Source of the DNA: Elusimicrobiota bacterium | GTDB lineage: Bacteria; Elusimicrobiota; Elusimicrobia; UBA1565 | DNA length: 14,653 bases | Assembly (NCBI GenBank): GCA_043819795.1 | Contig: JBDREN010000211.1 | Span: 1 to 14,653 of the forward strand | Reading direction: 5' to 3' | Shown: piece after piece, positions 5 to 14,653 of the stretch | Layout: each line of letters begins with the position of its first letter | Numbering within the stretch: position 1 is the stretch's first letter | Made by a program: the position numbers and the translations under genes | The notes under the pieces: generated by a model | What the model was told of the DNA's origin: nothing | Databases searched by the model: none | Seen by the model: the letters and a program-made list of their open reading frames with translations, nothing else

Positions 5-55
5 TGGGTGCGGGGGCAGGATTTGAACCTGCGACCTCAAGGTTATGAGCTTTGC
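5..55 (-). tRNA. 3' half of initiator-type tRNA-Met(CAT); partial copy, probable att site of an integrated element
   Basis: Minus strand reads gcaaag-CTCATAA-ccttgaggtc-gcagg-TTCAAAT-cctgc-ccccgca-c-CCA: anticodon loop with CAT, T arm, acceptor 3' strand and CCA. No D arm or 5' acceptor strand upstream, and one mismatch in the anticodon stem. Confidence 0.9.
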
Positions 56-317
56 ACCTCAGAAAACGGCCCGCTCAGAACCTCTCCGTCGAGGACCCCC
101 CTGGCGGCGGCTCGCGCCCGCCCAGGAACCTTGTGGTTCTCGATGATTGCAGCAGATCCCAATTACCGCCGCTTCCACCAGGCAAACCAGACGTGGTCCT
201 ATATAGCCGTGCCCGATCGCATGCAATCATCGTTTTCGCGCGATTGCAGCGGAGAAACCGTCATTCTTGAACTGCACCAGTGAATGGGCTGACGTCATCG
301 GAACTGGCAGGGAACCA

Positions 318-620: not shown

Positions 621-830
621 TCAAAGAGACGATATCTCCAAGAGCCTTTCCTCCAGCTCGCTTACCATACGCCGCACAAGCTCCCTCTGCTCGATAAGGC
701 CGGCGTCCCTTCGGGGCGTCCCTCGCCGGGCGACGCGCCGGAGCTGGAGCCCCAGGTTGTCGTCGGTCCTCTCCAGGACATCGATCTCCGTCCGCAGTCT
801 TCGTATCTTGCTCCTTCTTTTATCCCGCAT
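621..830 (-). CDS. 69-aa coiled-coil protein resembling the GreA/GreB N-terminal domain with a degenerate, basic tip
   Basis: ATG at 830 preceded by GAAGGAGG. RLRTEIDVLE...ARRGTPRRDAGL.EQRELVRRMVSELEERL aligns by eye with GreA KLREELDFLK...EHGDLKENAEY...EQQGFCEGRIKDIEAKL. The CDS is well supported; the family call is tentative. Confidence 0.6.
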   Translation of the reverse strand: MRDKRRSKIRRLRTEIDVLERTDDNLGLQLRRVARRGTPRRDAGLIEQRELVRRMVSELEERLLEISSL

Positions 831-841
831 GACCGCCTCCT

Positions 842-2269
842 TCAACGCCCTGCCCGGACGGCCCGTTCCGGTTCTTCCGGTCGCTCTTGTCTGAGCGCCG
901 GAAGGACGATTGAGAACTCCGAGCCCCTTCCGTCTTCAAAGGCGACGTTCACCTTCCCGGAATGTCTCTCAGCCGCCATCCTACAGAACGCCAGCCCCAG
1001 CCCCACGCCGGCCGCGTCGGAGGCGAAGCTCTCGAAAGGACGGAATATCTTCTCCCGGAGCTCCGGGGGCACGCCCGGGCCTTCGTCCTTCACGTAGAAC
1101 TCCACCATCCGCCCGTCGGGGCCCGGGGACCTCGCGCCGAGCGTCACCGTGCTTCCGCGCGGGCTATTCTGCAGCGCGTTGCTGACGAGGTTGCCCACGA
1201 GCCGCCGCAGCAGGGCCCAGTCCGCATAGATCCACTCCTCAGAGAGGGAGTCGGGAAGCTCCAGCCGCCATCGGCGGCCCGAGCCTTGCGTGAGCACGGC
1301 ATTCTCCTCGCCGCATTCACGGATGAAGCACGGGACGGATATCCGGTCCTTGTTGAGAGGGACCTGGGCCGCCTCGAGCTTCGATACGTGCAGCAGGTCC
1401 TCGACCATATTATCGATCCGCCGCATGCAGAGCCGCGCCATCGGCAGCAGCTTCTGGCGCCACTCCGGCGTCAAGAGGTCGCCGCCCTTGGCCGCGCGCA
1501 GGGTGCAATCGATGACCGTGAGGGGGTTCTTGAGGTCGTGCACCAGCATCGAAGACCACCGGTCTTTTGCCTTCTCCAACCGCACGCGCTGCTCATGCTC
1601 GGACTCCAGCTGCTTGTGCAGCCTTCGCAGCGAGGCGGTCAGCTTGGAGACCTCGTCGCTCCCCGCGTCCTTCGGCAGCGGCGGAAAAGCCTCGCCCATC
1701 CTCATCCTCTCCGCGGCTTCCGCTAATCGGCAAAGGCGCCGGCCGAGAGCCCTGCCCAGCCACCAGGAGAGACCGGCGAGCAGGATCGCCGCGAAGCCTG
1801 CGATGGCCGCGCCGCGCCACAGGAGCGCGGCCACGGCTTCACGCATGCCTTCGGTGCCTATCCCGATCTCGACGCTGCCTGGGCCCGCGTCACGGGACCC
1901 GATCGCGGCTGTCGCCCGATAGTAGCCGCCGTCCGAAGTCTCGGCGGCCCATTTGTCGGGCCCCGCTCCCGGGCGCGCAGCGTATCGGCTCAGAGCTCCA
2001 TCCGGGCTCCGCAAAGCGACGTACGCCACGCGGGGGAGCTCCAGGAATTCCTGAAAGGTATCATCCAGTGCGGCGTCGTCTCCGGCCTTGAGGGACTTCT
2101 GGGCAAGATACGCGACCACCTCGGCCAGGGCTTGGCCGCGGGCCTTGAGCGGTTCATGCAGGGACCGCCTGGACGCCACGAAACGGTCCGCGATCAGTAG
2201 ACTCAGGCAGACGCTTGAGATCGCGAACGTGATCGCCGCCAGCTTGCCGCGCAGAGACAATGGCCTCAC
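842..2269 (-). CDS. Membrane sensor histidine kinase (2 TM, periplasmic domain, HAMP, HisKA, HATPase_c)
   Basis: H box SMLVHDLKNPL, N box NLVSNALQNS, G1 DEGPGVP, F box IFRPF, G2 GVGLGLAFC, HAMP (SDEVSKLTASL). Start taken as GTG 2269, which overlaps the upstream stop (GTGA); the longer ORF to 2665 overlaps the SH3 gene. Confidence 0.93.
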   Translation of the reverse strand: MRPLSLRGKLAAITFAISSVCLSLLIADRFVASRRSLHEPLKARGQALAEVVAYLAQKSLKAGDDAALDDTFQEFLELPRVAYVALRSPDGALSRYAARPGAGPDKWAAETSDGGYYRATAAIGSRDAGPGSVEIGIGTEGMREAVAALLWRGAAIAGFAAILLAGLSWWLGRALGRRLCRLAEAAERMRMGEAFPPLPKDAGSDEVSKLTASLRRLHKQLESEHEQRVRLEKAKDRWSSMLVHDLKNPLTVIDCTLRAAKGGDLLTPEWRQKLLPMARLCMRRIDNMVEDLLHVSKLEAAQVPLNKDRISVPCFIRECGEENAVLTQGSGRRWRLELPDSLSEEWIYADWALLRRLVGNLVSNALQNSPRGSTVTLGARSPGPDGRMVEFYVKDEGPGVPPELREKIFRPFESFASDAAGVGLGLAFCRMAAERHSGKVNVAFEDGRGSEFSIVLPALRQERPEEPERAVRAGR

Positions 2270-2847
2270 CCCCCTGCGGTATCCCGGGTCCCGCGCCGCC
2301 GCGCCTGCGGGTCCGCCCCGGCCTCCCAGCCGTCCTCCGGGCGCTCCCTGTCGGGCCGCTTGTCTCCCCATACGATGGACGCATGGATCCATCCCTCCAC
2401 ATCGCCCTCGTCCTTCACCTTGAGCCAGTTCCCCGTCCGGTCCACGACCTTGAACGTATAGCCCAGGTCCACCTCCCAGACCACCTGGCGCCTCATGCCC
2501 GGGCCTTCGCGGACGTTCGCCATCTCGGCGGTCACGACTACGGCGGGGCCGTCGTCGAGCAGGCTGTCGTGGATCCAGCCCGTATAGTCCTCGAAATCCC
2601 GGACGCGGACCCAATCGCCGCGGCGCGCCAGCACCTCCAAGGGGGTGTGAATCCACGCCTGCCACGCCACGTCCGAGCTGTGCGAGGGTCCGGCCCGGAC
2701 GTTGGCCCTCTTGACGCGCACGGACGCAATCTCTCCGAACGCCGCGGAGCTCAGAGCGAGGATGAGCGCCGGCACGGCCGCCCGGACCGCCAGGCCTCGG
2801 CCGGCGCGCCGGGATCGATCCGCTTCCGATCGGGTGTTCGTTCTCAT
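2266..2847 (-). CDS. Secreted protein with two tandem bacterial SH3 domains
   Basis: Signal peptide (ALILALSSAAFG) and two repeats ANVR.GP...W..V.D..G..GWIH.S; AAGGAGG RBS. Confidence 0.92.
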   Translation of the reverse strand: MRTNTRSEADRSRRAGRGLAVRAAVPALILALSSAAFGEIASVRVKRANVRAGPSHSSDVAWQAWIHTPLEVLARRGDWVRVRDFEDYTGWIHDSLLDDGPAVVVTAEMANVREGPGMRRQVVWEVDLGYTFKVVDRTGNWLKVKDEGDVEGWIHASIVWGDKRPDRERPEDGWEAGADPQARRRGTRDTAGG

Positions 2848-2868
2848 GGCTCGCCTCCTTCGCTATTT

Positions 2869-2934
2869 AGTATAGTAGGCGGGTAGCTATTTTGAAAGAC
2901 GATAAATCCTATCATGGTTATTTAAAAAACCAAT
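2869..2934 (-). promoter_or_regulatory. LysR-type promoter for the SH3-kinase operon: -10 TATACT, weak -35 TTTCAA (17-bp spacer), T-N11-A box ATTT-N7-CAAT at 2920-2934
   Basis: AT-rich intergenic region divergent from the LysR gene. It has a paralogous copy at 4648-4713 with the same spacing. Confidence 0.7.
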
Positions 2935-3832
2935 GATTCCGCTCAATTACCACCACCTCTACTATTTCTGGGCCGTCGTCAAGGCGGGCAGCATCAGCCG
3001 GGCCAAGAGACGGCTTCTGCTGGCGCAGCCGACCTTGAGCCTCCAACTCAAGGAGCTGGAGAAGGCCTTCGGGGAGAAGCTCCTCAATAGGACCCACAAG
3101 GGGATATCGCTCACGGGCCCGGGCAGGGTCGTCTTCGAGTGCTGCGAGAGGATATTCCCGGTCGGCGAGCAGCTCGCGTCCAAGATGCAGAAGGACGCGG
3201 CCGTTCTGCCCGCCGTGCTCCATATCGGCGTGGAGGAAACGGTGGCCAGGGCCGTCGTCGTGCGCATGCTGGACTTCCTCGGGCGGGGGGCCCGGGGGGT
3301 GCGGGTCCATATCGTCGGCGGAGCCCTCCCCGACCTCAAGGACCGCTTGAGCCGTCACACCGTCGACCTTCTGGTATCCGACGTGGACCTGTCCGTGGCT
3401 TTGGGTAGGGAGTTCGTCAGCCGCCCCAAGGTCCGAGACCCGGTGGTATTTGTCGGGTCTCCGCGTCTCCTGCGCGATTTCAAGAGATTCCCGCGCGATC
3501 TGGCGAAGTACCCCATGCTCCTGAGAACGGCGGGCAATCCGGTCCGCAAGGAAGTGGACCAATTCCTCTGCCAGCACGGGATCGAGGCGAACATCGGCGC
3601 CGAGATAGAGGACAACGACCTGATACGCCTGCTGGCGCTCCGCGGCCAAGGAATCGCCGCGCTCGGCCGGATGAGCGTGCGCAAAGATATCCAGGCCAAG
3701 CGATTAAGGCAGGTCCATGGCCGCCTGCTCGGGATCACCGAACCCGTTTGGTTCACGTCTGGAAGGCTCCCCAGGCCGAACCCGGTGCTCCAGAAGGCGA
3801 TCCGGGCCATCATGTACGACCTGCGCTTCTAA
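2933..3832 (+). CDS. nhaR: LysR-family transcriptional regulator, NhaR-like
   Basis: N-terminus LNYHHLYYFWAVVKAGSISRA...QPTLSLQLKELE is the NhaR-subfamily HTH. 299 aa with LysR substrate-binding domain. Orthology to true nhaR is not established. Confidence 0.9.
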   Translation: MIPLNYHHLYYFWAVVKAGSISRAKRRLLLAQPTLSLQLKELEKAFGEKLLNRTHKGISLTGPGRVVFECCERIFPVGEQLASKMQKDAAVLPAVLHIGVEETVARAVVVRMLDFLGRGARGVRVHIVGGALPDLKDRLSRHTVDLLVSDVDLSVALGREFVSRPKVRDPVVFVGSPRLLRDFKRFPRDLAKYPMLLRTAGNPVRKEVDQFLCQHGIEANIGAEIEDNDLIRLLALRGQGIAALGRMSVRKDIQAKRLRQVHGRLLGITEPVWFTSGRLPRPNPVLQKAIRAIMYDLRF

Positions 3833-4335
3833 GGGCCAAGGCAGCAGGAGCGCGGGGCACGCGGCCGAGCGTATGAGTTCCGCCGCGCTGGAAGGCCCGG
3901 GAGCAGCTCTTTCCCGGACCTCACCACCAGCATGGGGAGCGGCAGCATCCGGGCCACCCGCTCGGTGACCGAGCCCGACCGGGCCAGCGGCATGCCGCGC
4001 CTGGCGTGCGTCCCCATCACCACCGCCTCCGCGGTGCCGAGGACGCTTTCCACGGGACCGCTTTCCTGCACGTACGCGGAAATCCGCATGCCCGGGCCCG
4101 CGAAGCGGCCGGCGAACTCCTTGAGGCAGCGGGCCAAGGCGCGCTTCTTGTGGAGCGCTCTCGGCTCGATGTCGAGCAGGATCTCAGGCGTGAAATACGG
4201 AGGCGCGTCGAAGCGCTTGGCCGTCACCGCGACGAGCCGCGACTTGCGGCTCCTCGCCCACGCGCCCGCGTACCGGAGCGCGAGCTTCGAATGTCCGCTG
4301 AAATCCACCGGGCAGACGATGCATCGCCGCGTCAT
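3829..4335 (-). CDS. Universal stress protein (Usp domain)
   Basis: IVCPVDFSGHSKLALRYA...VVMGTHARRG...GSVTERVARMLPLPMLVVR is the Usp signature. TGATG coupling to the upstream gene. Confidence 0.9.
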   Translation of the reverse strand: MTRRCIVCPVDFSGHSKLALRYAGAWARSRKSRLVAVTAKRFDAPPYFTPEILLDIEPRALHKKRALARCLKEFAGRFAGPGMRISAYVQESGPVESVLGTAEAVVMGTHARRGMPLARSGSVTERVARMLPLPMLVVRSGKELLPGLPARRNSYARPRAPRSCCLGP

Positions 4336-4622
4336 CAGCCGCTCCCCCGGGTTATGACGAAGCGCGGCCCGCCGTCCCCGTCTTTACGGTAGTCGAGGGC
4401 GAATCCGCCCAGCGCCAAGGACGGGAAGGCCACGAGGTCGATCAGGACCGCCCCGCCCGCCTTCCGGGTCATGATGTATTCATGCCCGACTCCTGCGCGA
4501 TTCCACACGACGCAGGGCGGCCCCTTGCGGAAGGCGAGCCTCGCCTTGGCCCGCCTGGGGAAGCCGTTCGCCGTCCGAAGGGTCCCGATGCGGCGAGCCG
4601 CTCTGGATGCGAGTATGATCAT
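4335..4622 (-). CDS. Divergent HesB/IscA-like small protein
   Basis: MIILASRAARRI...ARLAF...VLIDLVAFPSL..GFALDY..RFVI follows the same pattern as the other two paralogs. GGAGGAGG RBS. Confidence 0.6.
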   Translation of the reverse strand: MIILASRAARRIGTLRTANGFPRRAKARLAFRKGPPCVVWNRAGVGHEYIMTRKAGGAVLIDLVAFPSLALGGFALDYRKDGDGGPRFVITRGSG

Positions 4623-4647
4623 ACGAGCCTCCTCCCTGGCCTACTCC

Positions 4648-4713
4648 AGTGTGGCGGCCGCAAGGCCATTTGCAAAGACTATAAATTCAATCATTATCAT
4701 TGTTTGTCTAAAT
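4648..4713 (-). promoter_or_regulatory. Second LysR-type promoter: -10 CACACT, -35 TTTGCA (17-bp spacer), T-N11-A box ATTG-N7-AAAT at 4699-4713
   Basis: 4665-4702 matches 2886-2923 at 28 of 38 positions without gaps. Confidence 0.7.
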
Positions 4714-4824
4714 AAGCTTCGCGCCCGCGGCGGCTCGCTCGGTCGCCCGGGCCGGGGAAGCAGGGCGGGCCAACGCTTCGCGCGCGCCGCGCCAGACCGG
4801 TCGACGCGACAAGAAGGGCGGTCC

Positions 4825-4855
4825 TTGACAAATCCGGCTATGGAGCTATAACTAT
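4825..4855 (+). promoter_or_regulatory. Sigma70-type promoter TTGACA-N16-TATAAC
   Basis: TTGACA at 4825-4830 and TATAAC at 4847-4852, upstream of the GspC/PilP-like gene. Confidence 0.7.
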
Positions 4856-4951
4856 GGTAGGGCGTGTCCACGATCGGCACGCCGCTTCGGGCCAAGAAGC
4901 CATCGCGCTCCAAGAAGTTGGAGGCGGGGCTTCTTCGTTTCTGGGGGTCTC

Positions 4952-5602
4952 TTGGACGGAAACCGCGGACGCACATCGACTTCCGGCGGGAGCGGGCGCC
5001 GCTGGGGGGCTCCGCCTCCGCGTGGAAACGCGCTCCCTCTCCGTAAAGACCCGCACGTGCCGGAACAAGGGATTCGGCCGGGGACCGAGCGTATCTCGGC
5101 CGCGCTCTATTCGGCCCTGGCGGCCTTCAGGCAGGCGCTGGACCGGACCGAACCGCTCCGGGCCGCCAACGCCGTCCTGGCGATCCTTACGGCGTTTTCT
5201 CTCGGCTATCTTATCCTTCTTTGGACCCACGATGATCAGCAGGCGAGTCCGCGGGAGGGGCCGGAGGGCGGTCTCGCTCCGGAGCAATCCAGGCTGTCCC
5301 GGCGCCGCTATCCGTACTATATCAAGGCCGTGAGGTCCCGCGACCTTTTCGGCCGTCGTCGCCGCGTCGTGGTCGAGAAGAAGAGGACCGGACCCACGGC
5401 CGCGCAGAGAGCGCGCCGGCTGCGCCTGATGGGATTCATCGAGGCGGACGGGGCGCTTCAGGCCGTGGTGCTCGACAGGAGGGCCCGCGTTACCCGCTAC
5501 GTTCGGAAGGGGGACACCATCCGGGGGCTCCTCGTGGAGACCGTGGGCGGGGGCAAAGTGGTGCTCACGAAAGACGGAGACAAAGTGACGCTCTCTCTAT
5601 GA
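4952..5602 (+). CDS. GspC/PilP-like membrane-anchored protein (type II secretion / type IV pilus)
   Basis: One TM (NAVLAILTAFSLGYLILLW), RDLF motif, then LRLMGFI...QAVVLD...YVRKGDTIRG..VETV..GKVVL...VTLSL (HR/PilP beta domain). Directly upstream of a secretin remnant. Start codon uncertain. Confidence 0.72.
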   Translation: MDGNRGRTSTSGGSGRRWGAPPPRGNALPLRKDPHVPEQGIRPGTERISAALYSALAAFRQALDRTEPLRAANAVLAILTAFSLGYLILLWTHDDQQASPREGPEGGLAPEQSRLSRRRYPYYIKAVRSRDLFGRRRRVVVEKKRTGPTAAQRARRLRLMGFIEADGALQAVVLDRRARVTRYVRKGDTIRGLLVETVGGGKVVLTKDGDKVTLSL

Positions 5603-6335
5603 GCCGGAGGAGCCATAAGTAGGCACATCGCGGCGATCGCATTGAGCCGTATGCTGACGATCGGCACGGCCGGCCCGACGATGGCTCAGCCGCAGCCGAA
5701 CCCGGGCTTGAGCAAGGGGGACGGCAGCGGATGGAGAGACTCCGAAGGCGCTCCCGGCCCCCGTAGCGGAGGGCCCCCTCCGTCCCGGAACCGCCGCTAG
5801 GGCCTCGGGCGACCCCGGCACGACGGCCCGCACGCCCCGGGGCCTCGCGCGGAGGCGACACCCGCGTCATCGTCACGGACAGCGGAGAGAAGCGGGGACA
5901 GAGGCCTGGCGGGGGGGGAGACGACCAATCCTGAGCAGGTCACCTTCGTGGATGCGGGGATCAGATCTTCGTCACCCCGACCATCGGCGAGGACGGCTTC
6001 ATCACCATGAAGTTGAAACCCATGGCGAGCTCGGTCAACAACACCATCACCACCGCGCATGGCAACACGATTCCCTTTGTCCGGACCTCCGAGGCCGAGA
6101 CAGCGTCATGATCAAGGACGGGACGAACCTTGTAATCGGCGGCCCGATCGAGGCCCGCAAGGAGAAGAAGGTCAACCGCGTCCCCATCCTGAGCAAGATC
6201 CCGCCGCTGGGCTTCTTCCTCAAGAGCGTGAGCGAGCAGGTGCGCGAGTCGCAGCTGGCGATCTTCCTGCCCCCGCATCGTTTCGGGAACTTTGGGCGCG
6301 AAGGGATCAAGCACGCTGTAACAGTATTTCCCTAG
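5599..6335 (+). pseudogene. Secretin (GspD/PilQ family) pseudogene: internally deleted and frameshifted
   Basis: Across two single-base frameshifts (about 5965 and 6102) the sequence reads EQVTFVDAGI/FVTPTIGEDGFITMKLKP...IPFVRTSEAET/VMIKDGTNLVIGG...VPILSKIPPLGFFLK...QLAIFLPPH, the secretin C-terminal domain. A signal-peptide-like remnant follows ATG 5599 out of frame. Most of the N-terminal part is missing. Confidence 0.85.
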
Positions 6336-6375
6336 TTGGAATATCTCCAGGCCGTCTCGGCCTGAATCCGCCGGA

Positions 6376-7902
6376 TCAGGACGGGCCGGCGCGCGCGCCC
6401 AGGTCGCGCGCCGGCCGCGCCGGGGGTGCCCCGCGAGGACCCTCCTGGGACTGCCTGTAGGCGTCGAACAGCATGGCGGAGAGCACGTTCCCCACCGCGA
6501 TGGCTCCCGGGCGCATGATGTGCCCGAGGTCCGGAGACACCAGCCTGGGCCTCCTCAGATACCAGCGCGCCATGGTGCCCTCGCCGCCCAGCGCCTCGAA
6601 GAGATCGACGTAGGCGCACCCGGCTTGCGCGGCTGCCTGCTCCGCGGCGGCGACGACCTTCCGCACCGCCGGCCGGCTCACGATCAGATTGCGCTTCCTC
6701 ATGCCCATGTCTTTGGGGGAGACGACCAGGCATGAGGCCTCCGGACGCCCGGTCATCGTCCTGCCGATGCTTTTGACGTAGGCGCGGCGGAAGGACCTGG
6801 CCTGGCGGTCGGTCAGATACGGCTTGCGCATGAGCTCCTTGGCGCCCCACTGGAATATCACGAGGTCGGGCTTCCTCGCCGCGACCTGGCGCCGCAGGTG
6901 GTCCGGGTCGTAGTTCAGCTGGGTGTTGGCCCACGCGCCGATGACCATGACGGCGTCCAGCACGAAACCCCGGTCGCGCTCGAGAACGGCCCCGTAGAGC
7001 CGGGCCGGGAAGTCGCCGGCCGAGACGCGGACCCTGTGCGGGGCGTCGTCGAGCTCCATCGCGAAGACCTTGTCGCGGGTCCCGTAGGCGTTCGTGCGCA
7101 CGGTGGCGGAGGAGCTTCCGCCGTCCACTTCGATGCGCACGTCCCCGCCGCCGGGGTAGGCCTGATAGTGCAGCTCGAAGCGCGAGAAGCGGGCTCCGGC
7201 GGGGAAGTCGAGATATCCCCCGCGCCGGCTCTCGCGGGGCGAAAGCGCGGCGTACTCCACCCACGCGGGGCCCTCGTTGACCGCGAGCACGCCGCCCAGC
7301 CCGTAGCGCCGGTCGTCCAGTCCGCCCTCCAGCACCGTGTGGACCTTCCAGCCGTCGCTCACCGTCCAACGTACGTCCCTATGGCGCTGGTAGCGCCAGC
7401 CCGGCGCGATGACCATGAATCCCTTGCCGCCGTCGCCGAAGCGCGCTTGAAGCGAGCGGCGCACCTGGCTGGTCACCCGGTCGAAGCCGATTTCGGAATT
7501 CCCGAAATACACGGCCCGGACGGGCCCGGGCGCCGAGCCTTCCTCGGCGGCGGCGAGCGCGGTGAAGAAATGCCTCATGGAGCCGGCGGGATCGCGGAAG
7601 TGGGGGTGCCTGAACCCAGCGTACGGCCTGGGCGTCTCCTCTGCGGCAGCCCCCTCTTGGCGGCGGTCCGGCACGGGGGCTTCGCCCGGGGAAGCGGCCT
7701 GCGGCGGCCGTTCGAGGCTCGGCGGGGGGGGTGGTCGACCTACGGCCTCTTGCGCGCCCGGAGGCGGCGCAGGAGAAACGGCCCGCATATGGCGCATGCC
7801 GGACGCCAGGCCCGTCGCCGCGGCGAGCATCGCGATCATGGCGTAGCCGCCCCAGACGCCTCCGATGCGGTCGGCCTGCGGGGGATGCGCTGAATCTTCC
7901 AT
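6376..7902 (-). CDS. Periplasmic SGNH/GDSL-family O-acetyltransferase/esterase (PatB/AlgJ-like partner of MBOAT)
   Basis: N-terminal hydrophobic anchor, Pro-rich linker, block I YFGNSE, LQARFGDGGKGF, PDLVIFQWGAKE, SCLVVSP.D and DxxH (DLGH). Directly downstream of the MBOAT gene. Confidence 0.85.
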   Translation of the reverse strand: MEDSAHPPQADRIGGVWGGYAMIAMLAAATGLASGMRHMRAVSPAPPPGAQEAVGRPPPPPSLERPPQAASPGEAPVPDRRQEGAAAEETPRPYAGFRHPHFRDPAGSMRHFFTALAAAEEGSAPGPVRAVYFGNSEIGFDRVTSQVRRSLQARFGDGGKGFMVIAPGWRYQRHRDVRWTVSDGWKVHTVLEGGLDDRRYGLGGVLAVNEGPAWVEYAALSPRESRRGGYLDFPAGARFSRFELHYQAYPGGGDVRIEVDGGSSSATVRTNAYGTRDKVFAMELDDAPHRVRVSAGDFPARLYGAVLERDRGFVLDAVMVIGAWANTQLNYDPDHLRRQVAARKPDLVIFQWGAKELMRKPYLTDRQARSFRRAYVKSIGRTMTGRPEASCLVVSPKDMGMRKRNLIVSRPAVRKVVAAAEQAAAQAGCAYVDLFEALGGEGTMARWYLRRPRLVSPDLGHIMRPGAIAVGNVLSAMLFDAYRQSQEGPRGAPPARPARDLGARAGPS

Positions 7903-7908
7903 GGGAAA

Positions 7909-9348
7909 TCAGAATTGGAAGTAGATGAAGCTCCTCTGGGCCAAAAGCGCCATCCGCTCGATGATGAACGCGAAGGCCACGACCAGCGCACCCTGCAGCG
8001 CCGGATGCCAAACGGCGACCGCCCTCCGCATGCGCTCTTCCACCCGCTCCGGCACGTAGTGGGCGACCACGGCGGCCAGCAGCACGAGCAGGGAGACGGC
8101 GGGGAACCCGGCCGAAGCGCCCGTGAAGGAGAACGCGCGTCCATAGACCGCCCAGGCCGTGGGCAGGTCCGCGGCCCGAAACAACGGAAGCGAAAAGATG
8201 ATGAAGAGATTGGTCAATACGATCGGCGCGACCCTGCCCTCGAGCCGGTCCTCGAGACCGCGCGCGCCCCCCGCCGCGAACGGCGCCGCGAGCGCCAGCG
8301 CTGCGCGGGTCCCGATCACACCCACGGCGTGATAGAGGCCGAACAGGACGTATTTCCAATGGGCGCCGTGCCAAAGGCCGATGACGGCGAAGGTGAGGAG
8401 GATGTTGCGCAGCGTCCTGTGGAGCCCGCCCCGGCTTCCGCCCATCGGCACGTAGAGATAGTCGAAGGCGAAGCGGGTCAGCGTCATGTGCCACCGCCGC
8501 CAGAAGCGGGCGGGGGTGCAGGCGGCGTAGGGCCTGTCGAAGTTCTGCGGCAGGTCGAACCCGAAGAGCCGGGCCGACCCGATGGCGATGTCGGTGTAGC
8601 CGGAGAAATCGCAGTATATCTGGAAGTGGAACCCGATCAAGGCCACGAACGTCTCCATCGAGTTGAACAGATGCGGCATGTTGAAGACCGGATCGACGAC
8701 TGCCCCGGCCAGATAGTCCGCCACCACCATCTTCTTGGCCAGCCCGCGCAGGATGAGGTATACGCCTTGGGCCAGGTCGTCGCGCGTCAACCTCGGCTCG
8801 CCCTCGAACTGCGGCAGGAGTTCGCCCGCGCGCACGATGGGCCCGGCGATTAGCTGGGGGAAGAAGGCGACGAACAGGAAGAAGTCGCGCGCGGACCGGG
8901 CCGGCTGGATGCGCCGGAGGTAGATGTCCAGCGTGTAGCTCATGCTCTGGAAGGTGTAGAACGAGACGCCGATGGGCAGCAGGATCCGCAGGGTGGGGAG
9001 GTCCGCCTCCATGTGGAGCAGGTTTAGGGTCCAGCCCACGTTGTCGATCATGAATTGGCCGTACTTGAAGAGGCAGAGCACGGCCAGGTTGCTGACCACG
9101 CTGATCACGAGGAAGAGCCGCCGCAAGCGCGGCCTCTTGTCGTAGGCGTAGATGAGGTGGCCCGCGGAATAGTCGATGAGGGTCGAAAGGAAGATCAGGA
9201 CGAGATAGAGCCCGTTCCAAGAGGCGTAGAAGACGTAGCTGGCGGCCAAAAGCAGCCATAGCCGCAGGGACGGATGCCGCCGCATGCCCCAGAAGAGGAC
9301 GAAGACTGAAAACAGGAGGAAGAAGTATCCGCCGCTGTTGAACGACAT
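7909..9348 (-). CDS. MBOAT family O-acyltransferase (AlgI/PatA/DltB type)
   Basis: MSFNS..F, LPIGVSFYTFQSMSY, FFPQLIAGPIVR, QIYCDFSGYTDIAIG, NFDRPY, FWRRWHMTL, GLWHGA. Confidence 0.96.
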   Translation of the reverse strand: MSFNSGGYFFLLFSVFVLFWGMRRHPSLRLWLLLAASYVFYASWNGLYLVLIFLSTLIDYSAGHLIYAYDKRPRLRRLFLVISVVSNLAVLCLFKYGQFMIDNVGWTLNLLHMEADLPTLRILLPIGVSFYTFQSMSYTLDIYLRRIQPARSARDFFLFVAFFPQLIAGPIVRAGELLPQFEGEPRLTRDDLAQGVYLILRGLAKKMVVADYLAGAVVDPVFNMPHLFNSMETFVALIGFHFQIYCDFSGYTDIAIGSARLFGFDLPQNFDRPYAACTPARFWRRWHMTLTRFAFDYLYVPMGGSRGGLHRTLRNILLTFAVIGLWHGAHWKYVLFGLYHAVGVIGTRAALALAAPFAAGGARGLEDRLEGRVAPIVLTNLFIIFSLPLFRAADLPTAWAVYGRAFSFTGASAGFPAVSLLVLLAAVVAHYVPERVEERMRRAVAVWHPALQGALVVAFAFIIERMALLAQRSFIYFQF

Positions 9349-9483
9349 CAGGATCCCGCCCGCGCGGTCTTCCGGATACTACCGCAATCCGCCCGGCGGG
9401 ATACAGGGGCCGGGGCCTCCGGCGCGCGTTCGATCAGGCCTTTCAAGCCGGCGGACGCTCCCCCGGGATGCGGTGGCCCGCTC

Positions 9484-9933
9484 TCATAGCCTCGGCGTGT
9501 AGACCTCAACCACTTCGACGTCGAAGCGCAAGGATTTTCCCGCGAGCGGGTGATTGAGGTCGACGGTGACGTCGCCTGGTCCAAGCGCGACCACCGTCGC
9601 GCGGTCCAGCCCGCCGACGCGCGGCACGGAAACCGCGCTGCCGATCCGGAGAGCGCCCGGGTTGAGGAACTCCTTCTTGGGTATTCTCTTGAGCGCCTTC
9701 GGGTCGCGCCGGCCGTAGCCCTGTTCCGGGGGCAGGAGCACGGTCTTCGTTTCGCCGGCCTTCATGCCGGCCAGGCGCTCTTCGAGCCCCGGCAGGATCT
9801 CCCCCGAGCCTTGGATGTAGGTCACGGGGTCCTTCCCCGACGTGCCGGCGACCGCGCGGCCGTCCACCGTGAGGGTGTAGCGGATCGTGGCATGCGAGCC
9901 TTTCCGGATGATGCCCGCGCTACCTCCTATCAT
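9484..9933 (-). CDS. slyD: FKBP-type peptidyl-prolyl isomerase, SlyD/SlpA type with IF domain and no His-rich tail
   Basis: YTL..DG, P.TYIQGSGEILPGLEE.L.GMKAGE...PEQGYG, VTVDLNHPLAGKSLRFDVEV. GGAGAGG RBS. Confidence 0.92.
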   Translation of the reverse strand: MIGGSAGIIRKGSHATIRYTLTVDGRAVAGTSGKDPVTYIQGSGEILPGLEERLAGMKAGETKTVLLPPEQGYGRRDPKALKRIPKKEFLNPGALRIGSAVSVPRVGGLDRATVVALGPGDVTVDLNHPLAGKSLRFDVEVVEVYTPRL

Positions 9934-9972
9934 GACCTTCCCTCTCCAGGAGGACCGTCCGGCCCGCGGTCC

Positions 9973-11538
9973 TCATTCACAGTACTCCCGCAGCGCTCCC
10001 GACCGCGAAGGATGCCGGAGCTTGCGGACGGCCTTGGATTCGATCTGGCGTACCCGCTCCCGCGTGATCCGCAGCAGGCGGCCCACCTCGTCGAGAGTGC
10101 GGGGATAGCCCGCGCCGATGCCGAAGCGCAGCTTCAGGATGCTGGCCTCCCGGCCGGTCAGCGTGGAGAGGACCCTCTCGAGCCTGGCGCGCAGCATGCT
10201 CTCTTTGAGCAGGCGCGAGGGCTCCGGCACGCTCGGGTCCTTGATGAGGTCCTCGAGGCGCGAGTCCCCGTCCTCGCCGATCGGGGTGTCGAGGGAAACC
10301 GGCCGCTGCATGATCTTGAGGCCCGTCTTGACCGTGTCGAGAGGGACGCCGAGCCGCCGCGCGTACTCCTGCGGCGTGGGATCGCGCCCGAGCTCCTGCC
10401 GGCACCGGCCTCCGGCCTTATGGATCCTCGAGCACAGCTCCTTCATGTGCACCGGGATGCGGATCGTGTCCGCCTGGTCGGCGATCGCCCGGTTCATCGA
10501 CTGGTGCACCCACCAGGTCGCGTAGGTGGAGAACTTGAACTTCTTCCTGTACTCGAACTTGTCCACCGCCTTCATGAGCCCCAGTCCGCCCTCCTGGATC
10601 AGGTCGGACATCTCGAGGCTGGAATACCTCTTCTTCCTGGCGATGGCGACCACCAGCCTGAGGTTGGCCCGGATGATCCTGAGCTTGTCGGCGAGTATGT
10701 GCTCCTCGAGCGCCGTGATCCTCCGGTCCAGCTCCAAGAACCGGTCGACCGGCATGGGGATCGTGCGGGTCAGCCGTTCAAAACGCTCCCGAACCGCCCG
10801 CATCCTCGTCCCGCCCGGGCCTGGACGGCCGGAACGCCGCCCGCGGCCGGCTCCGGAGCGTCTTCGCATCGCCTCGAGCTCCCGGCGGCACTGACGGACC
10901 TTGGCGGCGAGGCTCTTGATCTTGTTGGCGAGCCGTTTGATCTTGTCCGGGTTGAGGTCCAGCGCCACGATCCTCTTGAGGACCGCCTTCTTGCGCGCCT
11001 CGATAGCTCTCGTGATGGCCGCCTTCCTGCGAGGACAGGCGCGGCGGAGTTCGGCCGCCAGCCGGCTTATCCGCGCCTCGGACCTGGCTATGCAGCCAGA
11101 CGTGCGGCGCATCTTGCGCCGCATGGCCGCGAGCTCTCGGGGCGGCCGCGTGCCGCGGGGCATCAGCTCCTTGGGCGACATCTCCTTCAAGGAAAGCAGG
11201 TGCTCCCAGTTGCGGATCTCGCGCATGGCCACGGGGGATTCCAGGACCAAGAGCTCAAGCTCCTTTTGGCGCTCATGGACGTTCCTGCAGAGCCGGACCT
11301 CGTCGTCCCGGCTGAGCAGCGCGGTCTTCGCCATCTGGGAGAGATACATGCGGATCGCGTCCGAAGCGCCCGGAGCATGGTCCCATTGCTCTCGGAAAGC
11401 CCGGCCACGGCGGCCCGTCCCGGCGCCCAGCCCCGCGCGTGTCGGGACCGGCCTGCCGCGCCCACGCATCCCGTTGCGGGCTCCTGCCGTCGATCGTCCG
11501 CGACTGCCGGCCATAGTCATCAAATCGCGGGCCGTCAT
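9973..11538 (-). CDS. rpoD: RpoD-like sigma70 factor lacking acidic region 1.1 (probable accessory paralog)
   Basis: Region 1.2 [10 protein letters not shown], non-conserved region, region 2 [37 protein letters not shown], region 3 SLDTPIGED, region 4 TLDEVG...[22 protein letters not shown]. Exact start uncertain. Confidence 0.93.
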   Translation of the reverse strand: [521 protein letters not shown]

Positions 11539-11554
11539 CCTCTTCCTCGAGACG

Positions 11555-11857
11555 TCAAGCGGCTCCTCCAGGCATCGGCCGCATCCAGAACCCCGCCTGT
11601 CCGAAGCCGTTGGACTCAGGGGGGGTATAGTCCAGCATGTGCCCGGAGAATTCCGCCTCCAGACCGCTGTCCACCACCACGGGGATGCCCGACACCTCCC
11701 GCACCTCCTCGGAGCCGAGGCGCTTCAAATCCTCTAGGCCCAAGCGGATTCCCCCTTCCTCGGTCCGCTCGATGCGCAGGGCCTTGCGTCCGGGCGATCC
11801 CCGCTGCGGGAGTTGGTTTTTGATGTGTTTCGCGGCTCGTTCGGAGAACCTGATCAT
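11555..11857 (-). CDS. Cysteine-free HesB/IscA-like small protein
   Basis: MIRFSERAAKHIK...ALRIE...GIPVVVDS...GHMLDY...GF. ATG 11857 has a GGAAGAGG RBS and overlaps the upstream stop (ATGA). Paralog of 318..608. Confidence 0.75.
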   Translation of the reverse strand: MIRFSERAAKHIKNQLPQRGSPGRKALRIERTEEGGIRLGLEDLKRLGSEEVREVSGIPVVVDSGLEAEFSGHMLDYTPPESNGFGQAGFWMRPMPGGAA

Positions 11858-12132
11858 GGAGCGTCCTCTTCCTGTACGGCGGACGGGCGCGTGCCGGCGC
11901 AGGAGGCGTGCGCCAGGTTGAGCCCGCTGGTCTCTCCCGGATCCTCGACCACGACGGGATGGTCCTCGCCCGGACATCCTCCGAAATCGGGCCCGTCGGA
12001 CAGGAGGAAGCCGAGTCCGCATACGCAGCATTCAGAGGGCTGTTCGCCGTCCTCCGGACGTTCTTCGTAGGGCCGCCCGCCGTCATAGCGGCGTGCCCAC
12101 CACGCCGGTCCGGATCCTTTTGAGTCGGCCAT
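11854..12132 (-). CDS. Hypothetical 92-aa acidic protein with CxxC...HxxC putative zinc ligands
   Basis: GGAGGAGG RBS, CCVCG and HASC motifs, translationally coupled to the next gene. Confidence 0.65.
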   Translation of the reverse strand: MADSKGSGPAWWARRYDGGRPYEERPEDGEQPSECCVCGLGFLLSDGPDFGGCPGEDHPVVVEDPGETSGLNLAHASCAGTRPSAVQEEDAP

Positions 12133-12192
12133 GCCTCCTCCGCGCTTGTTTTCTCGATGGTCGGGCGCCGCTCGCGTCCGCCGCGGCCCGGC

Positions 12193-12459
12193 CTACGATT
12201 CCGGAGGGACGATCTCGAGTATCTTGAAGCCTTTCGTGCCCTCGGGCAGCCTGACCAGCGCCGCCTCTCCCGCTCCGCATCCGATGATCGCGTCGGCGAG
12301 CGGGCAATAGACGGAGATCCTGTTTCGGGACCGATCGACCTCGTTCGGAAGGACCAGCTCATAGTCCGCCTTCTCTGCCGAGTCGACGTTCTGTATGGTC
12401 ACCCGGCTTCCCAGACAGACGTCGTCCTCCCCGTCAACGGTCTTCCCGTTCCTCGTCAT
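12193..12459 (-). CDS. GreA/GreB/Rnk C-terminal-domain-only protein (88 aa)
   Basis: VCLGSRVTI...YELVLPNEVD..RNRISVYCPLADAIIG..AGE...LPEG...KILEI. ATG 12459 has a GGAGG RBS. No N-terminal coiled coil is encoded upstream. Confidence 0.88.
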   Translation of the reverse strand: MTRNGKTVDGEDDVCLGSRVTIQNVDSAEKADYELVLPNEVDRSRNRISVYCPLADAIIGCGAGEAALVRLPEGTKGFKILEIVPPES

Positions 12460-12497
12460 GGCGTTGCCTCCGGATTGCGGCGCGCCTTCCCCCAGCG

Positions 12498-12545
12498 AAA
12501 CAAAGGCCCCCACGACCCTCCCGTCATGGGGAGCGCCGTGGAGGC
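12498..12545 (-). terminator. Leader terminator 2 (attenuator-like)
   Basis: GCCTCCACGGC pairs with GTCGTGGGGGC (11 bp including G-U) around an inner CTCCC/GGGAG hairpin, followed by CTTTGTTT. Confidence 0.55.
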
Positions 12546-12560
12546 TGACGCGGCCTCCAC

Positions 12561-12599
12561 AAAAAGAATCCTCCGCACCCGAGTAATCGGGAGCGAAGG
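12561..12599 (-). terminator. Leader terminator 1 (attenuator-like)
   Basis: CCTTCGCTCCCGA-TTAC-TCGGGTGCGGAGG stem (one mismatch, one G-U) followed by ATTCTTTTT. Confidence 0.65.
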
Positions 12600-12645
12600 C
12601 GGTCCTGGCCTACCGACGCGCGCCGCTCATGAGCGCGCTATCATT

Positions 12646-12673
12646 ATTATAGCCGGCCTTGCCCTGATGTCAA
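12646..12673 (-). promoter_or_regulatory. Consensus sigma70 promoter TTGACA-N16-TATAAT for the greC-sigma operon
   Basis: TTGACA at 12673-12668 (contains the TGA stop of the ANTAR gene) and TATAAT at 12651-12646. Confidence 0.8.
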
Positions 12674-13260
12674 GGCCGGAGACCCTCCTCGGCGAGCAGG
12701 ATGGCCCGCGCTACCTCCGCCAGCTTCTTGTTGGACTTTCTCGCCATCCTCTGGAGCTTCCTGTGGGCGTCCGCCTCCGAGAGGTTGGAGGCGCGCATGA
12801 CGATTCCCTTCGCCTTCTCGATCACCTTGCGGTCCTCCAAGGACTGCTTGAGCGAGTCCACCTCCTCATGCATCGCTTTGTACCCCTCGCACCGGGACAG
12901 GGCCAGCTGGATGGCGGGCATCAGGTCCTTCTCCTCGATCGGCTTGACCAGATATGAGGCTAGATGGGACTGCTTCGCCGCCCGGTCGATGAGGTCTTCC
13001 TCGTGGTAGGCGGTCACGATGACGAACGGGGTCGCCCTGTGCCGGCACACCCTCTCCGCCAGCTCCAATCCCGAGAGGCCCGGCATCTTGATGTCCGCGA
13101 CCACCAGGTCCGGCGCGAGCTCGCGAGCCAGCCGCAGGGCCTCCTCGCCGTCGCCCGTGTCGGCGATCACGAGATGGCCCAGCTTCTTGATCATCGATTT
13201 CAGGTGCAGGCGGATGACCCGCTCGTCCTCGGCGAGCAGGACGCGCAGTTTTTTCCTCAT
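12670..13260 (-). CDS. REC-ANTAR response regulator (PdtaR/EutV/NasT type)
   Basis: REC motifs LLAEDE, DIKMPG, TAY and YLVKP; ANTAR motif LEDRKVIEKAKGIVM...SEADAHRKLQRMA...KLAEVA. ATG 13260 overlaps the kinase stop (ATGA). Confidence 0.95.
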   Translation of the reverse strand: MRKKLRVLLAEDERVIRLHLKSMIKKLGHLVIADTGDGEEALRLARELAPDLVVADIKMPGLSGLELAERVCRHRATPFVIVTAYHEEDLIDRAAKQSHLASYLVKPIEEKDLMPAIQLALSRCEGYKAMHEEVDSLKQSLEDRKVIEKAKGIVMRASNLSEADAHRKLQRMARKSNKKLAEVARAILLAEEGLRP

Positions 13261-14381
13261 TCGGTCTTCGTCCTGAAAGTCACGCTGACGCGCGTGCCTT
13301 TCCCCCGTGCGCTCGCCATGGCGATGTCCCCGCAATGGAGCCTGGCGATCTTTCTGGCGATGGCCAGTCCCATGCCCGTGCCGCCCTCCTTGGTCGAGAA
13401 GAAGGGGACAAACGCGCGCCGCATCTCCTCCGCGCTCATGCCCCTCCCGTCGTCCGCGAACTCCACGCGCATCATCGGCGTCCCGTTCCGCACGAACGGC
13501 GCGGCGGCCAGCTTGATGCAGCCCCGTTGGCCGAGCGACTCGATGGCGTTCTCCAGCAGGTTGCGGAAGACGGACCTCATGCGGCGCGGATCGATAGAGC
13601 AGGGCGGGAGCCCGGAGTACTCCTTCCGGACCTGGATATTCTTCGCCGAGAGCGCTCCCCGCAGGTCGCGCAAGGCGTCGTCGATAACGCCGGAGACGCT
13701 GGTCTTCCGCGCCGCCAGCCGGACCGGCCGCGAGAAGTCCCTGAGGTCGGAGAATAGGTTGTTGAGGGCGTTGACGCTTTCCTCTAGGGACCGGATGATC
13801 GTCCGGGAGTGCCTGCCCCGCGGCCGCATCTGCTCCATCAAGAGGGCCACGGAGGACCGCAGCTTCTGAAGAGGGTTCTTGAACTCATGGACCACCGAGA
13901 TGATCAGCTCGCCGAGCCGCGCGAGATCGCGGGCCTGGGACAGCTCGTGCTCGATCTTCTTGCTCCTGGTGATGTCGATGCCCGTGTACAGGTATCCGGC
14001 GGGACGCTGTCGTTCATAGATGGGCACGATCGTGAGCAGAAGGACCACGTTGCTGCCGTCCTTGGCCGTGCGGGTGATCTCCCCCTTCCAGACCCCGTGC
14101 TCGGCCACGGCTCTGTAGTGTTCGACGCGGTCCCTTTCCAGGGAAGGGTCCGCGGAGAGCGTGTCGATGGAGCGCCCCACGATCTCGCCGCGGCTGTAGC
14201 CGAACAGCCTGAGGAACGCCGGGTTGACCTCGACGATCCTTCCCTTGAGGTCGGTGACGAGCATGGCGTCCGTGAAATGGGTGAACATGTCCCGCAGGAG
14301 CTGGACATTGCCCTTGAGGACGAGGTCCGGCTCCTTGATGATGGCCGTGCCGACGAGGGCGTCGTCGTCGTTGGTTTGCAT
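13257..14381 (-). CDS. Cytoplasmic PAS-domain histidine kinase (HisKA + HATPase_c)
   Basis: PAS (TDLKGRIVEVNPAF..FGYSRGEIVG...WKGEI...KDG), H box VHEFKNPL, N box NLLENAIES, DDGRGM, PFFSTKEGGTGMGL. Start set at ATG 14381, downstream of the promoter. Confidence 0.93.
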   Translation of the reverse strand: MQTNDDDALVGTAIIKEPDLVLKGNVQLLRDMFTHFTDAMLVTDLKGRIVEVNPAFLRLFGYSRGEIVGRSIDTLSADPSLERDRVEHYRAVAEHGVWKGEITRTAKDGSNVVLLLTIVPIYERQRPAGYLYTGIDITRSKKIEHELSQARDLARLGELIISVVHEFKNPLQKLRSSVALLMEQMRPRGRHSRTIIRSLEESVNALNNLFSDLRDFSRPVRLAARKTSVSGVIDDALRDLRGALSAKNIQVRKEYSGLPPCSIDPRRMRSVFRNLLENAIESLGQRGCIKLAAAPFVRNGTPMMRVEFADDGRGMSAEEMRRAFVPFFSTKEGGTGMGLAIARKIARLHCGDIAMASARGKGTRVSVTFRTKTE

Positions 14382-14445
14382 GGCTTTCCGGAAAGGTCTC
14401 CAGCCCGCCGGATACGGACGGCGGCGGGGCGACCCTCGGGTCGGT

Positions 14446-14476
14446 ATAGTTATAGAGGTATCTCGCGATTTGTCAA
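14446..14476 (-). promoter_or_regulatory. Sigma70-type promoter TTGACA-N16-TATAAC for the kinase-ANTAR operon
   Basis: Minus strand TTGACAAATCgcgagatacctCTATAACTAT has the same ends as the 4825-4855 promoter. Confidence 0.75.
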
Positions 14477-14563
14477 CCCCGCCCCTCGGCGCCCTCCTCC
14501 ATCCCGACATCCCCGGCCGGGCCGCAGGAAAATCGAAAGTAGATTTTGATTGACGGGGCTTAG

Positions 14564-14601
14564 GCGGATCCGGCGGATCTTTCCCGGATCCGCTGTTTTT
14601 T
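14564..14601 (+). terminator. Intrinsic terminator-like hairpin
   Basis: GCGGATCCGG-N10-CCGGATCCGC (10-bp perfect stem) followed by TGTTTTTT. Confidence 0.55.
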
Positions 14602-14604
14602 CGC

Positions 14605-14633
14605 TTGTGTATAACACATTAGTATACTATAGT
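14605..14633 (+). promoter_or_regulatory. Putative promoter TTGTGT-N17-TATAGT for a leaderless gene starting at ATG 14641 (truncated by the window edge)
   Basis: AT-rich block; the ATG lies 8 nt after the -10 with no SD. Overlapping palindromes TGTGT-ATA-ACACA and TAGTATACTA. Confidence 0.45.
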
Positions 14634-14653
14634 GTGGTATATGAACAAGCTCC

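Follow-up and report, generated by a model that had tools for sequence, protein, structure and literature searches.

The window, a stretch of 14,653 nucleotides (nt) that makes up the whole contig JBDREN010000211.1 of an Elusimicrobiota bacterium (GenBank assembly GCA_043819795.1; genome size 4.99 Mb, 90% complete), carries two short genes related, one certainly and the other probably, to different parts of the transcription factor GreA. The first gene of operon A encodes an isolated Gre C-terminal domain (CTD), and a gene of operon B encodes a 69-amino-acid (aa) helical hairpin that resembles the GreA N-terminal domain (NTD). This contig is referred to here as C211; the other contigs of the same genome (G000) are also given C numbers, the genomes of relatives G numbers, and fetched loci L numbers.

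The CTD gene (12193-12459, reverse strand) has a GGAGG ribosome-binding site (RBS) and codes for an 88-aa protein, residues 11 to 83 of which match the Gre C-terminal domain (Pfam ID PF01272; E = 8.8e-18). The best Foldseek matches of its predicted structure are GreA, Gfh1, Rnk, and GreB (E values from 6e-8 to 6e-5), the core is modeled with a confidence score (pLDDT) of ~90, and the domain motif is retained. The open frame upstream contains no hairpin domain, the polypeptide has no match to PF03449, and the predicted model lacks N-terminal helices. Thus, this is a real CTD-only Gre gene, as stated in the initial annotation of the window. The Rnk model PRK05753 scores the protein at 40.8 bits, below its cut-off of 109. 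Compared to Escherichia coli GreA, the CTD retains the equivalents of N96, D98, S121, and P125 but has a Cys residue in place of S124. Among the 87 full-length GreAs, the 86 that were read at the latter position have Ser, Ala, or Leu there, and 5 of the 10 genomic CTD-only proteins have Cys. In the available portion of the study of the E. coli protein (PMC7527559), S121P is described as impairing binding to RNA polymerase (RNAP), and S124L as retaining binding while losing the antipause activity. Given these phenotypes, the conserved S121 and the Cys at position 124 would fit a domain that still docks on RNAP but is uncoupled from a hairpin. A metagenome scan with the CTD returned a single relative, which is 27% identical and has two domains. 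The second-best library match to the CTD was the C terminus of a 1,666-aa protein (P0004) with repeated domains of an extracellular type.

The genome has five PF01272 matches above the cut-off: GreA, a GreB-like protein, the window CTD, and two CTD-only proteins encoded in tandem, which brings the number of CTD-only Gre genes to three. The intact GreA, encoded on C212, has the tip sequence GDLRENAEY and is the sole PF03449 match above the cut-off. This GreA, the GreB-like gene on C223, and the tandem on C133 (26637-27395; L270), the last located near an integrase gene and tRNA-Thr, were all absent from the initial annotation. Matches to PF01272 and PF03449 were found in all 61 genomes searched, and CTD-only genes in at least 4 of these, counting G003, G008, and G056; this count rests on 40 fetched places with second copies, some of which remained ambiguous. 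Among five more distant genomes picked for their extra matches, CTD-only genes are present in G374, G352, and G330, and a fragment is found in G368. CTD-only genes are thus seen repeatedly, in three families, and begin precisely at the domain; the 88-aa protein is a member of this recurring group. In a library search with the CTD, 44 of the best 149 matches were no longer than 115 aa, although many of these look like truncated gene calls. A 64-row tree, which retained 31 of the 87 GreA and 10 of the 12 GreB-like rows, grouped the other CTD-only sequences weakly (support values 62/35) and placed the window CTD on a long branch of unsettled position, outside the Rnk clade. L077 proved to be an Rnk row and was excluded from the CTD-only count. 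No natural CTD-only or split Gre factor was described in the literature searched, which left most subscription journals outside its coverage.

CTD-only genes have as neighbors two-component genes of the NarL type, paralogs of mreB, LysR genes of the NhaR-like kind, or rnk. Pairs of a kinase and a NarL-type regulator adjoin them on C133 and in L073, L074, L276, and L277, and an mreB paralog is also close by on C133 and in L073 and L074. In G352 (L235 and L238), rnk is directly followed by a CTD-only gene; genomes of family f5 encode several rnk paralogs each. The GreB-like protein of C223 belongs to a widespread family that is missed by PF03449 (L081 to L106, L224, L225, L230, and L232). Its members start with MSRAFxKED and have a shortened hairpin without the GDLxEN tip.

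The CTD gene is preceded by a σ70 promoter that matches the consensus at 12 of 12 positions (TTGACA-16-TATAAT; 12646-12673, reverse strand), one of 14 such perfect sites in the genome, and by a leader of ~180 nt (12460-12643, reverse strand). The leader folds into two small hairpins, P1 and P2, with CANGRNN loops, and P2 overlaps a first terminator, so that its 3′ strand forms the base of a U-tailed terminator. A second hairpin that shares a strand with the terminator is likewise described for targets of ANTAR regulators in the accessible text of PMC3369931. According to a terminator scan, this is followed by a further hairpin and then by a second terminator-like hairpin (12499-12532). Directly upstream of the promoter lies a gene for a REC-ANTAR response regulator (12670-13260, reverse strand; PF00072 and PF03861), the only ANTAR gene found in this genome, preceded by a PAS histidine kinase gene (13257-14510, reverse strand; PAS, HisKA, and HATPase_c domains), whose true start is probably later than 14510. 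This segment is syntenic with G003 (70% DNA identity over 12597-14337), and the PAS kinase is likely the partner of the ANTAR regulator.

Five copies of this leader are found in two genomes with orthologous ANTAR genes: two in the window (12460-12643, reverse strand, and 4857-4951, forward strand), one in L269 (2002-2091), and two in L300 (10272-10364 and 12661-12742). The RNA model R1, built from three of them, recovered the second window copy, which was outside the model-building set, at 43.4 bits (E = 5.6e-11), and the fifth copy, located before the SH3-kinase-ANTAR genes of G003, at an E value of 2e-9. The second window copy is preceded by its own promoter-like sequence (TTGACA-16-TATAAC; 4825-4852). 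Over 158 nt, the operon A leader shares 73% identity with the one that precedes an operon on C23, which encodes a paralog of the ribosomal gene rpsU and a HesB-like protein. Among 100 relatives, the leader was recognized beyond a short chance match only in G003, where it lies directly behind an ANTAR gene that is 77% identical to that of the window and heads an operon for a symporter, a deacetylase, and an acetyltransferase; ANTAR genes as such are present in 3 of 81 genomes. In the alignment of the five copies, 98.6% of the cells in paired columns can pair and 6 pairs show compensatory changes, a result not reached in any of 500 shuffles. The loops follow the pattern YANGR, are mostly 7 nt long, and retain G at position 4, and the linkers between the hairpins measure ~6 to 9 nt. 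A pattern scan of 185,579 genomes yielded 22 loci. Of these, 21 have neither the terminator nor an ANTAR neighbor and look like chance matches in coding sequence, and the remaining one (L337) repeats an element already counted, with the same leader and ANTAR gene. The ANTAR gene of G026 is not orthologous and comes without a convincing motif. Rfam detected no riboswitch in the leader. A second leader module with a GGAGGC/GCCUCC hairpin is found in two copies of G000 only (12499-12560, reverse strand, and L269:2080-2150); judged by eye, its loop could pair with a downstream GRCGC sequence as a pseudoknot that overlaps the second terminator-like hairpin.

With respect to its architecture, the leader qualifies as an ANTAR-type attenuator, to which the regulator would presumably bind and cause antitermination. 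It shares with the EutV/eutP, NasR/nasF, and AmiR/amiE systems the two small hairpins, the second of which overlaps an intrinsic terminator, the linkers of ~6 to 9 nt, the G at loop position 4, and the REC-ANTAR regulator with an adjacent kinase. In contrast to the A1-N-N-G4 hexaloops of those systems, the loops here are mostly heptaloops that start with a pyrimidine, and the target genes belong to transcription and protein folding rather than nitrogen metabolism. In the parts of PMC8934654 that deal with the EutV structure, EutV is seen to stack on G4 and A1 makes no contact with the protein. The YANGR loops might possibly represent a noncanonical ANTAR target code.

The 69-aa open reading frame (ORF) of operon B (621-830, reverse strand) has an RBS (GAAGGAGG) 5 nt before its ATG codon, lies 11 to 12 nt from its neighbors, and shows a coding-like GC content by codon position (0.65/0.43/0.75). 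In the register of GreA, its sequence GTPRRDAGL falls opposite the tip GDL[RK]ENA[EG]Y, with the tip glycine aligned; the catalytic acidic residues D41 and E44 are replaced by T38 and R41, confirming the loss of both that had been noted in the initial annotation. A 3-residue deletion follows the tip, and the last residue corresponds to I75. The alignment with the GreA hairpin itself, which had been made by eye, could be upheld only as probable. The protein has no sequence match in Pfam, NCBIfam, or PDB, it is not among the PF03449 matches in the whole genome listed to an E value of 10, and an hhalign comparison with alignment A2, which contains several poorly aligned non-GreA rows, gave a probability of 1%. 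The AlphaFold model, obtained with single-sequence input, is a two-helix hairpin (pLDDT, 94.5) that ends in a tight two-residue turn instead of the Gre tip loop. Its listed structural neighbors are generic (ESCRT-III, the SerRS arm, and PspA), and no Gre chain appears among the matches listed by Foldseek and VIA with this model or by Atlas, which is uninformative for a plain hairpin. All this would agree with a generic coiled-coil hairpin unrelated to Gre, in which case nothing but the CTD-only gene with its control by ANTAR would be real. However, a blind search with the ORF, run on 400 genomes of the phylum, argues otherwise. At E ≤ 0.01 it returned 5 matches, as many as expected by chance, 2 of which are GreA NTDs; at E ≤ 0.3, 17 of the 90 matches are hairpins of GreAs that belong to 5 families and align in a single register, and the next largest cluster has 3 members (69 of the 90 were read, and the other 21 were counted as non-Gre). 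Other universal hairpins did not cluster among these 90 matches. Since these GreAs are kin, the 17 matches amount to one strong signal rather than 17.

Scored with a profile of 63 GreA hairpins that had been collected without use of the query, the ORF attains a full-length (glocal) z value of 5.3, not reached by any of 1,000 plain or 1,000 heptad-preserving shuffles; with HMMER, 4 of 1,000 and 2 of 1,000 shuffles, respectively, scored as high. With this profile, the ORF ranks 13th among the 50,113 frames of the genome, after GreA and 11 long coiled coils, and first among the 10,927 short frames (35.7 versus 27.6 for the runner-up). A profile of 14 ENAGY-type hairpins, a subset picked after the matches were known, places it second of 50,113 by both methods, behind the true GreA, with an E value of 2.7. 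On the strength of the blind enrichment, the shuffles, and the ranks, the ORF is probably a degenerate derivative of the GreA N-terminal hairpin, and an origin from an unrelated coiled coil appears rather unlikely. Neither a word-index search of 5.8 billion proteins nor the 400 genomes of the phylum yielded an ortholog. In a profile search for other short NTD-only proteins, most of the best 120 of 1,657 matches were gene calls for truncated GreA, and all five that were inspected have a normal tip.

The remaining genes of operon A, all on the reverse strand, code for a 92-aa Cys-containing protein (11854-12132), which has an RBS, no Pfam or NCBIfam match, and leads from Atlas only; a HesB/IscA-like protein (paralog 2; 11555-11857), which is devoid of cysteines (TIGR00049, E = 3.4e-3, below the cut-off); an RpoD paralog (9973-11538) with regions 1.2, 2, 3, and 4 and no match to region 1.1; and an FKBP-type peptidyl-prolyl isomerase similar to SlyD and FkpB (9484-9933; PF00254, with PRK15095 and PRK10737 below the cut-off). 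The RpoD paralog is 58% identical to an RpoD-like protein encoded on C105; the genome has three such genes (window, C166, and C105), and the window copy has a basic N-terminal tail. Downstream of operon A (6376-9348, reverse strand) lies a pair of genes for an MBOAT acyltransferase and an SGNH/GDSL-like protein, which we take to be AlgI/AlgJ-like.

Operon B, also on the reverse strand, starts with a gene for a tandem bacterial SH3 protein (2266-2847; PF06347), followed by a HAMP histidine kinase gene (842-2260), the hairpin ORF, and the gene for HesB/IscA-like paralog 1 (318-608; TIGR00049, E = 2.3e-5, below the cut-off), which keeps the first Cys region. An SH3 gene is also found in G003, ahead of the genes for the PAS kinase and the ANTAR regulator. 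A weak promoter-like site (2869-2896, reverse strand; 9 of 12 matches) is divergent from the gene of an NhaR-like LysR regulator (2933-3832, forward strand), and the R1 leader motif was not found at operon B. Operons A and B thus probably respond to different inputs, one having the ANTAR leader and the other a promoter divergent from the LysR gene; different inputs alone do not make a logic gate.

Each of the two Gre-related genes does lie close to a HesB-like paralog on the same strand, as first observed, and these paralogs are 37% identical. However, a third one, missed in the initial annotation, is encoded on C23 (2160-2441) with no Gre neighbor found, and none of the three has the C-terminal CxC iron-sulfur ligands that are present in 49 of 50 canonical relatives. 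For both reasons, the HesB link between the two Gre halves is weak. The HesB paralogs have no close relatives among 400 genomes, 45 of which gave weak matches (best E = 2e-8) that were of the canonical type in the loci read.

The contig is a mosaic island, as indicated by a repeat with a tRNA fragment at one end, an insertion sequence (IS)-like end at the other, and a broken secretin gene. The tRNA-Met 3′ fragment (9-74, reverse strand; RF00005, 26.8 bits, below the gathering score) lies inside a ~240-nt repeat that is probably an attachment site at the island end. There are ~10 copies of this fragment in the genome, 6 of which extend over a further ~170 to 240 conserved bases; repeat sites occur at positions 1-240 of the window and on C23, C77, C80 (four copies), C232, and C235, and several are followed by a terminator-like hairpin. 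They look like attachment sites of tandemly accreted islands. The opposite end (14518-14653, forward strand) consists of the terminal part of a repeated IS-like element that contains an internal hairpin, with copies of 93 to 100% identity on C112, C71, and C156. It is located upstream of the PAS kinase gene, at the place taken in G003 by the SH3 gene. The secretin gene (5600-6300) is frameshifted and internally deleted, and C71 encodes an intact 592-aa homolog. Among the sequencing runs listed by a search, there was no RNA run and one DNA run, whose share was small.

The broken secretin gene and the HesB paralogs without iron-sulfur ligands, together with the singleton status of the hairpin ORF and the long branch of the CTD, raise the question of whether both Gre-related genes are nonfunctional or neutral leftovers of greA copies on an island in decay. 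Each of the two nevertheless has a strong RBS, begins and ends cleanly, and is coding-like at its third codon positions, and the CTD combines a confidently modeled core and a retained motif with counterparts in three families. Decay without function is a distinctly improbable explanation.

The initial annotation had suggested, as one of two possibilities, that the two proteins may reassemble only when both operons are on, acting as an AND gate on RNAP. Such a split, noncatalytic Gre factor would block the secondary channel in the manner of Gfh1, and it could draw on the presence of both halves on one contig, their apparently different regulation, the HesB-like paralog in each operon, and their boundaries, as the 69-aa ORF ends at the equivalent of I75 and the CTD starts near residue 73. 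However, in the co-occurrence check proposed in that annotation, none of the five genomes with CTD-only sequences that were searched (G003, G008, G056, G368, and G374) showed a stand-alone hairpin at E ≤ 10, with an NTD profile that included the 69-aa ORF and returned only GreA and long unrelated frames, and no NTD-like ORF was found near three fetched CTD-only loci. There are also three CTD-only genes for a single hairpin in this genome. The two halves appear to resemble different GreA subtypes: across 87 GreAs, similarity to the 69-aa ORF and similarity to the CTD are uncorrelated (rho = −0.13; P = 0.22). The ORF scores a mean of 61.6 against ENAGY-type GreAs of other families and 38.2 against the rest, the former value being inflated by GreAs that were found with the query. 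The CTD scores 127.3 against both groups, and its best matches come from its own family and order. Furthermore, 86 of the 87 full-length GreAs possess an N-terminal hinge motif (aromatic-hydrophobic-T/S) that the ORF does not have. For the equivalent P5 region, the available text of PMC7527559 proposes packing with I75 and F88 and describes it as necessary for binding. A structure prediction for the complex of the 69-aa ORF with the CTD (11-row alignment) scored 0.00, which is no answer and counts neither way. The lack of a hairpin ortholog and of co-occurrence, the different GreA subtypes, and the missing hinge motif do not support the reassembling AND gate; the two proteins most likely do not form one factor, and a split Gre acting in trans is very improbable. 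Equally hard to credit is its elaborate version, in which the ANTAR system would supply the CTD with an alternative RpoD and the LysR operon a basic-tipped hairpin for a joint Gfh1-like blocker, under a hitherto undescribed YANGR-heptaloop code.

The explanation that we favor, as one just on the probable side, is that the window holds two independently derived remnants of Gre domains in a mosaic island, with the CTD serving as an ANTAR-induced, Rnk-like competitor and the hairpin being a separate entity. Transcription from the consensus promoter would halt in the operon A leader as long as the ANTAR regulator has not been phosphorylated by the PAS kinase; once phosphorylated, the regulator would bind the two small hairpins and prevent formation of the terminator. 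Read-through would allow synthesis of the CTD, the RpoD paralog, the SlyD-like isomerase, and the HesB-like protein. The Gre CTD binds the β′ rim helices of RNAP. The window CTD may dock at the same site and compete weakly with GreA, with no RNA cleavage, as Rnk does. The 69-aa protein would be a copy of the GreA hairpin that has lost its catalytic tip and its hinge; unique to this genome among those searched and encoded in a separate operon, it might be drifting or acting alone. By analogy with the Rnk-type competition with GreA at RNAP, as it is presented in the accessible portion of PMC4598747, a Gre antagonist role is plausible for the CTD-only protein.

The known Gre-related proteins each differ from this pair. 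GreA and GreB (PF03449 plus PF01272; E. coli GreA, PDB ID 1grj) share with it the fold and motif of the CTD and, probably, the origin of the hairpin, but here the domains are encoded by separate genes and lack D41, E44, and the N-terminal hinge strand; the Cys at the S124 position of the window CTD is found in none of the 86 scored full-length GreAs. Rnk (E. coli, PDB ID 3bmb) likewise has a Gre-type CTD and no catalytic tip, but retains a short N-terminal coiled coil that the window CTD lacks. Gfh1 of Thermus, one of the proteins that the CTD matches best in structure, and Rv3788 are non-cleaving paralogs with two domains and conserved acidic tip residues, whereas the tip here is basic and resides on a separate polypeptide. 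A further parallel is provided by laboratory single-domain constructs of E. coli Gre, whose boundaries, as given in the available part of PMC7527559, nearly coincide with those of the two natural ORFs; these constructs have an intact tip and, unlike full-length GreA, neither is toxic alone.

Several observations weigh against the independent-remnant explanation. The homology of the hairpin to the NTD stays below every standard threshold, its best genome-level E value of 2.7 comes from a post hoc subset, and with the unbiased profile 11 long coiled coils score above it. The window CTD, on its long branch, is not resolved within the CTD-only group. The leader loops are not canonical ANTAR A1/G4 hexaloops, the leader has no strict motif, and the alignment used for the pair counts had been fitted to the R1 model. 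The co-occurrence test could overlook a hairpin that has diverged as much as the 69-aa ORF. The best NTD-like short ORF of the genome shares its 14.6-kb contig with a CTD-only gene, and the ends of the two ORFs meet almost exactly near the interdomain linker; if their origins are independent, this co-location and fit must be due to coincidence or a shared history of the island. Finally, specific binding to RNAP seems to require both domains in E. coli, and neither domain alone, including the overexpressed isolated CTD, is toxic, as far as the accessible text of PMC7527559 goes. Competition by the CTD may thus be weak or absent.

Natural single-domain Gre proteins would offer a way to probe the share of each domain in RNAP binding, so far studied with engineered fragments, and the CTD-only protein would be the smallest competitor at the secondary channel. 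The leader, if bound by the ANTAR regulator, would extend the ANTAR RNA code beyond A1/G4 hexaloops. The evidence does not favor an AND gate, which, if true, would come as a much greater surprise. According to the available portion of PMC4598747, it is not known what physiological role Rnk-like factors play. In this bacterium, the co-induction of the CTD and an RpoD paralog points to a module under signal control that may retune transcription.

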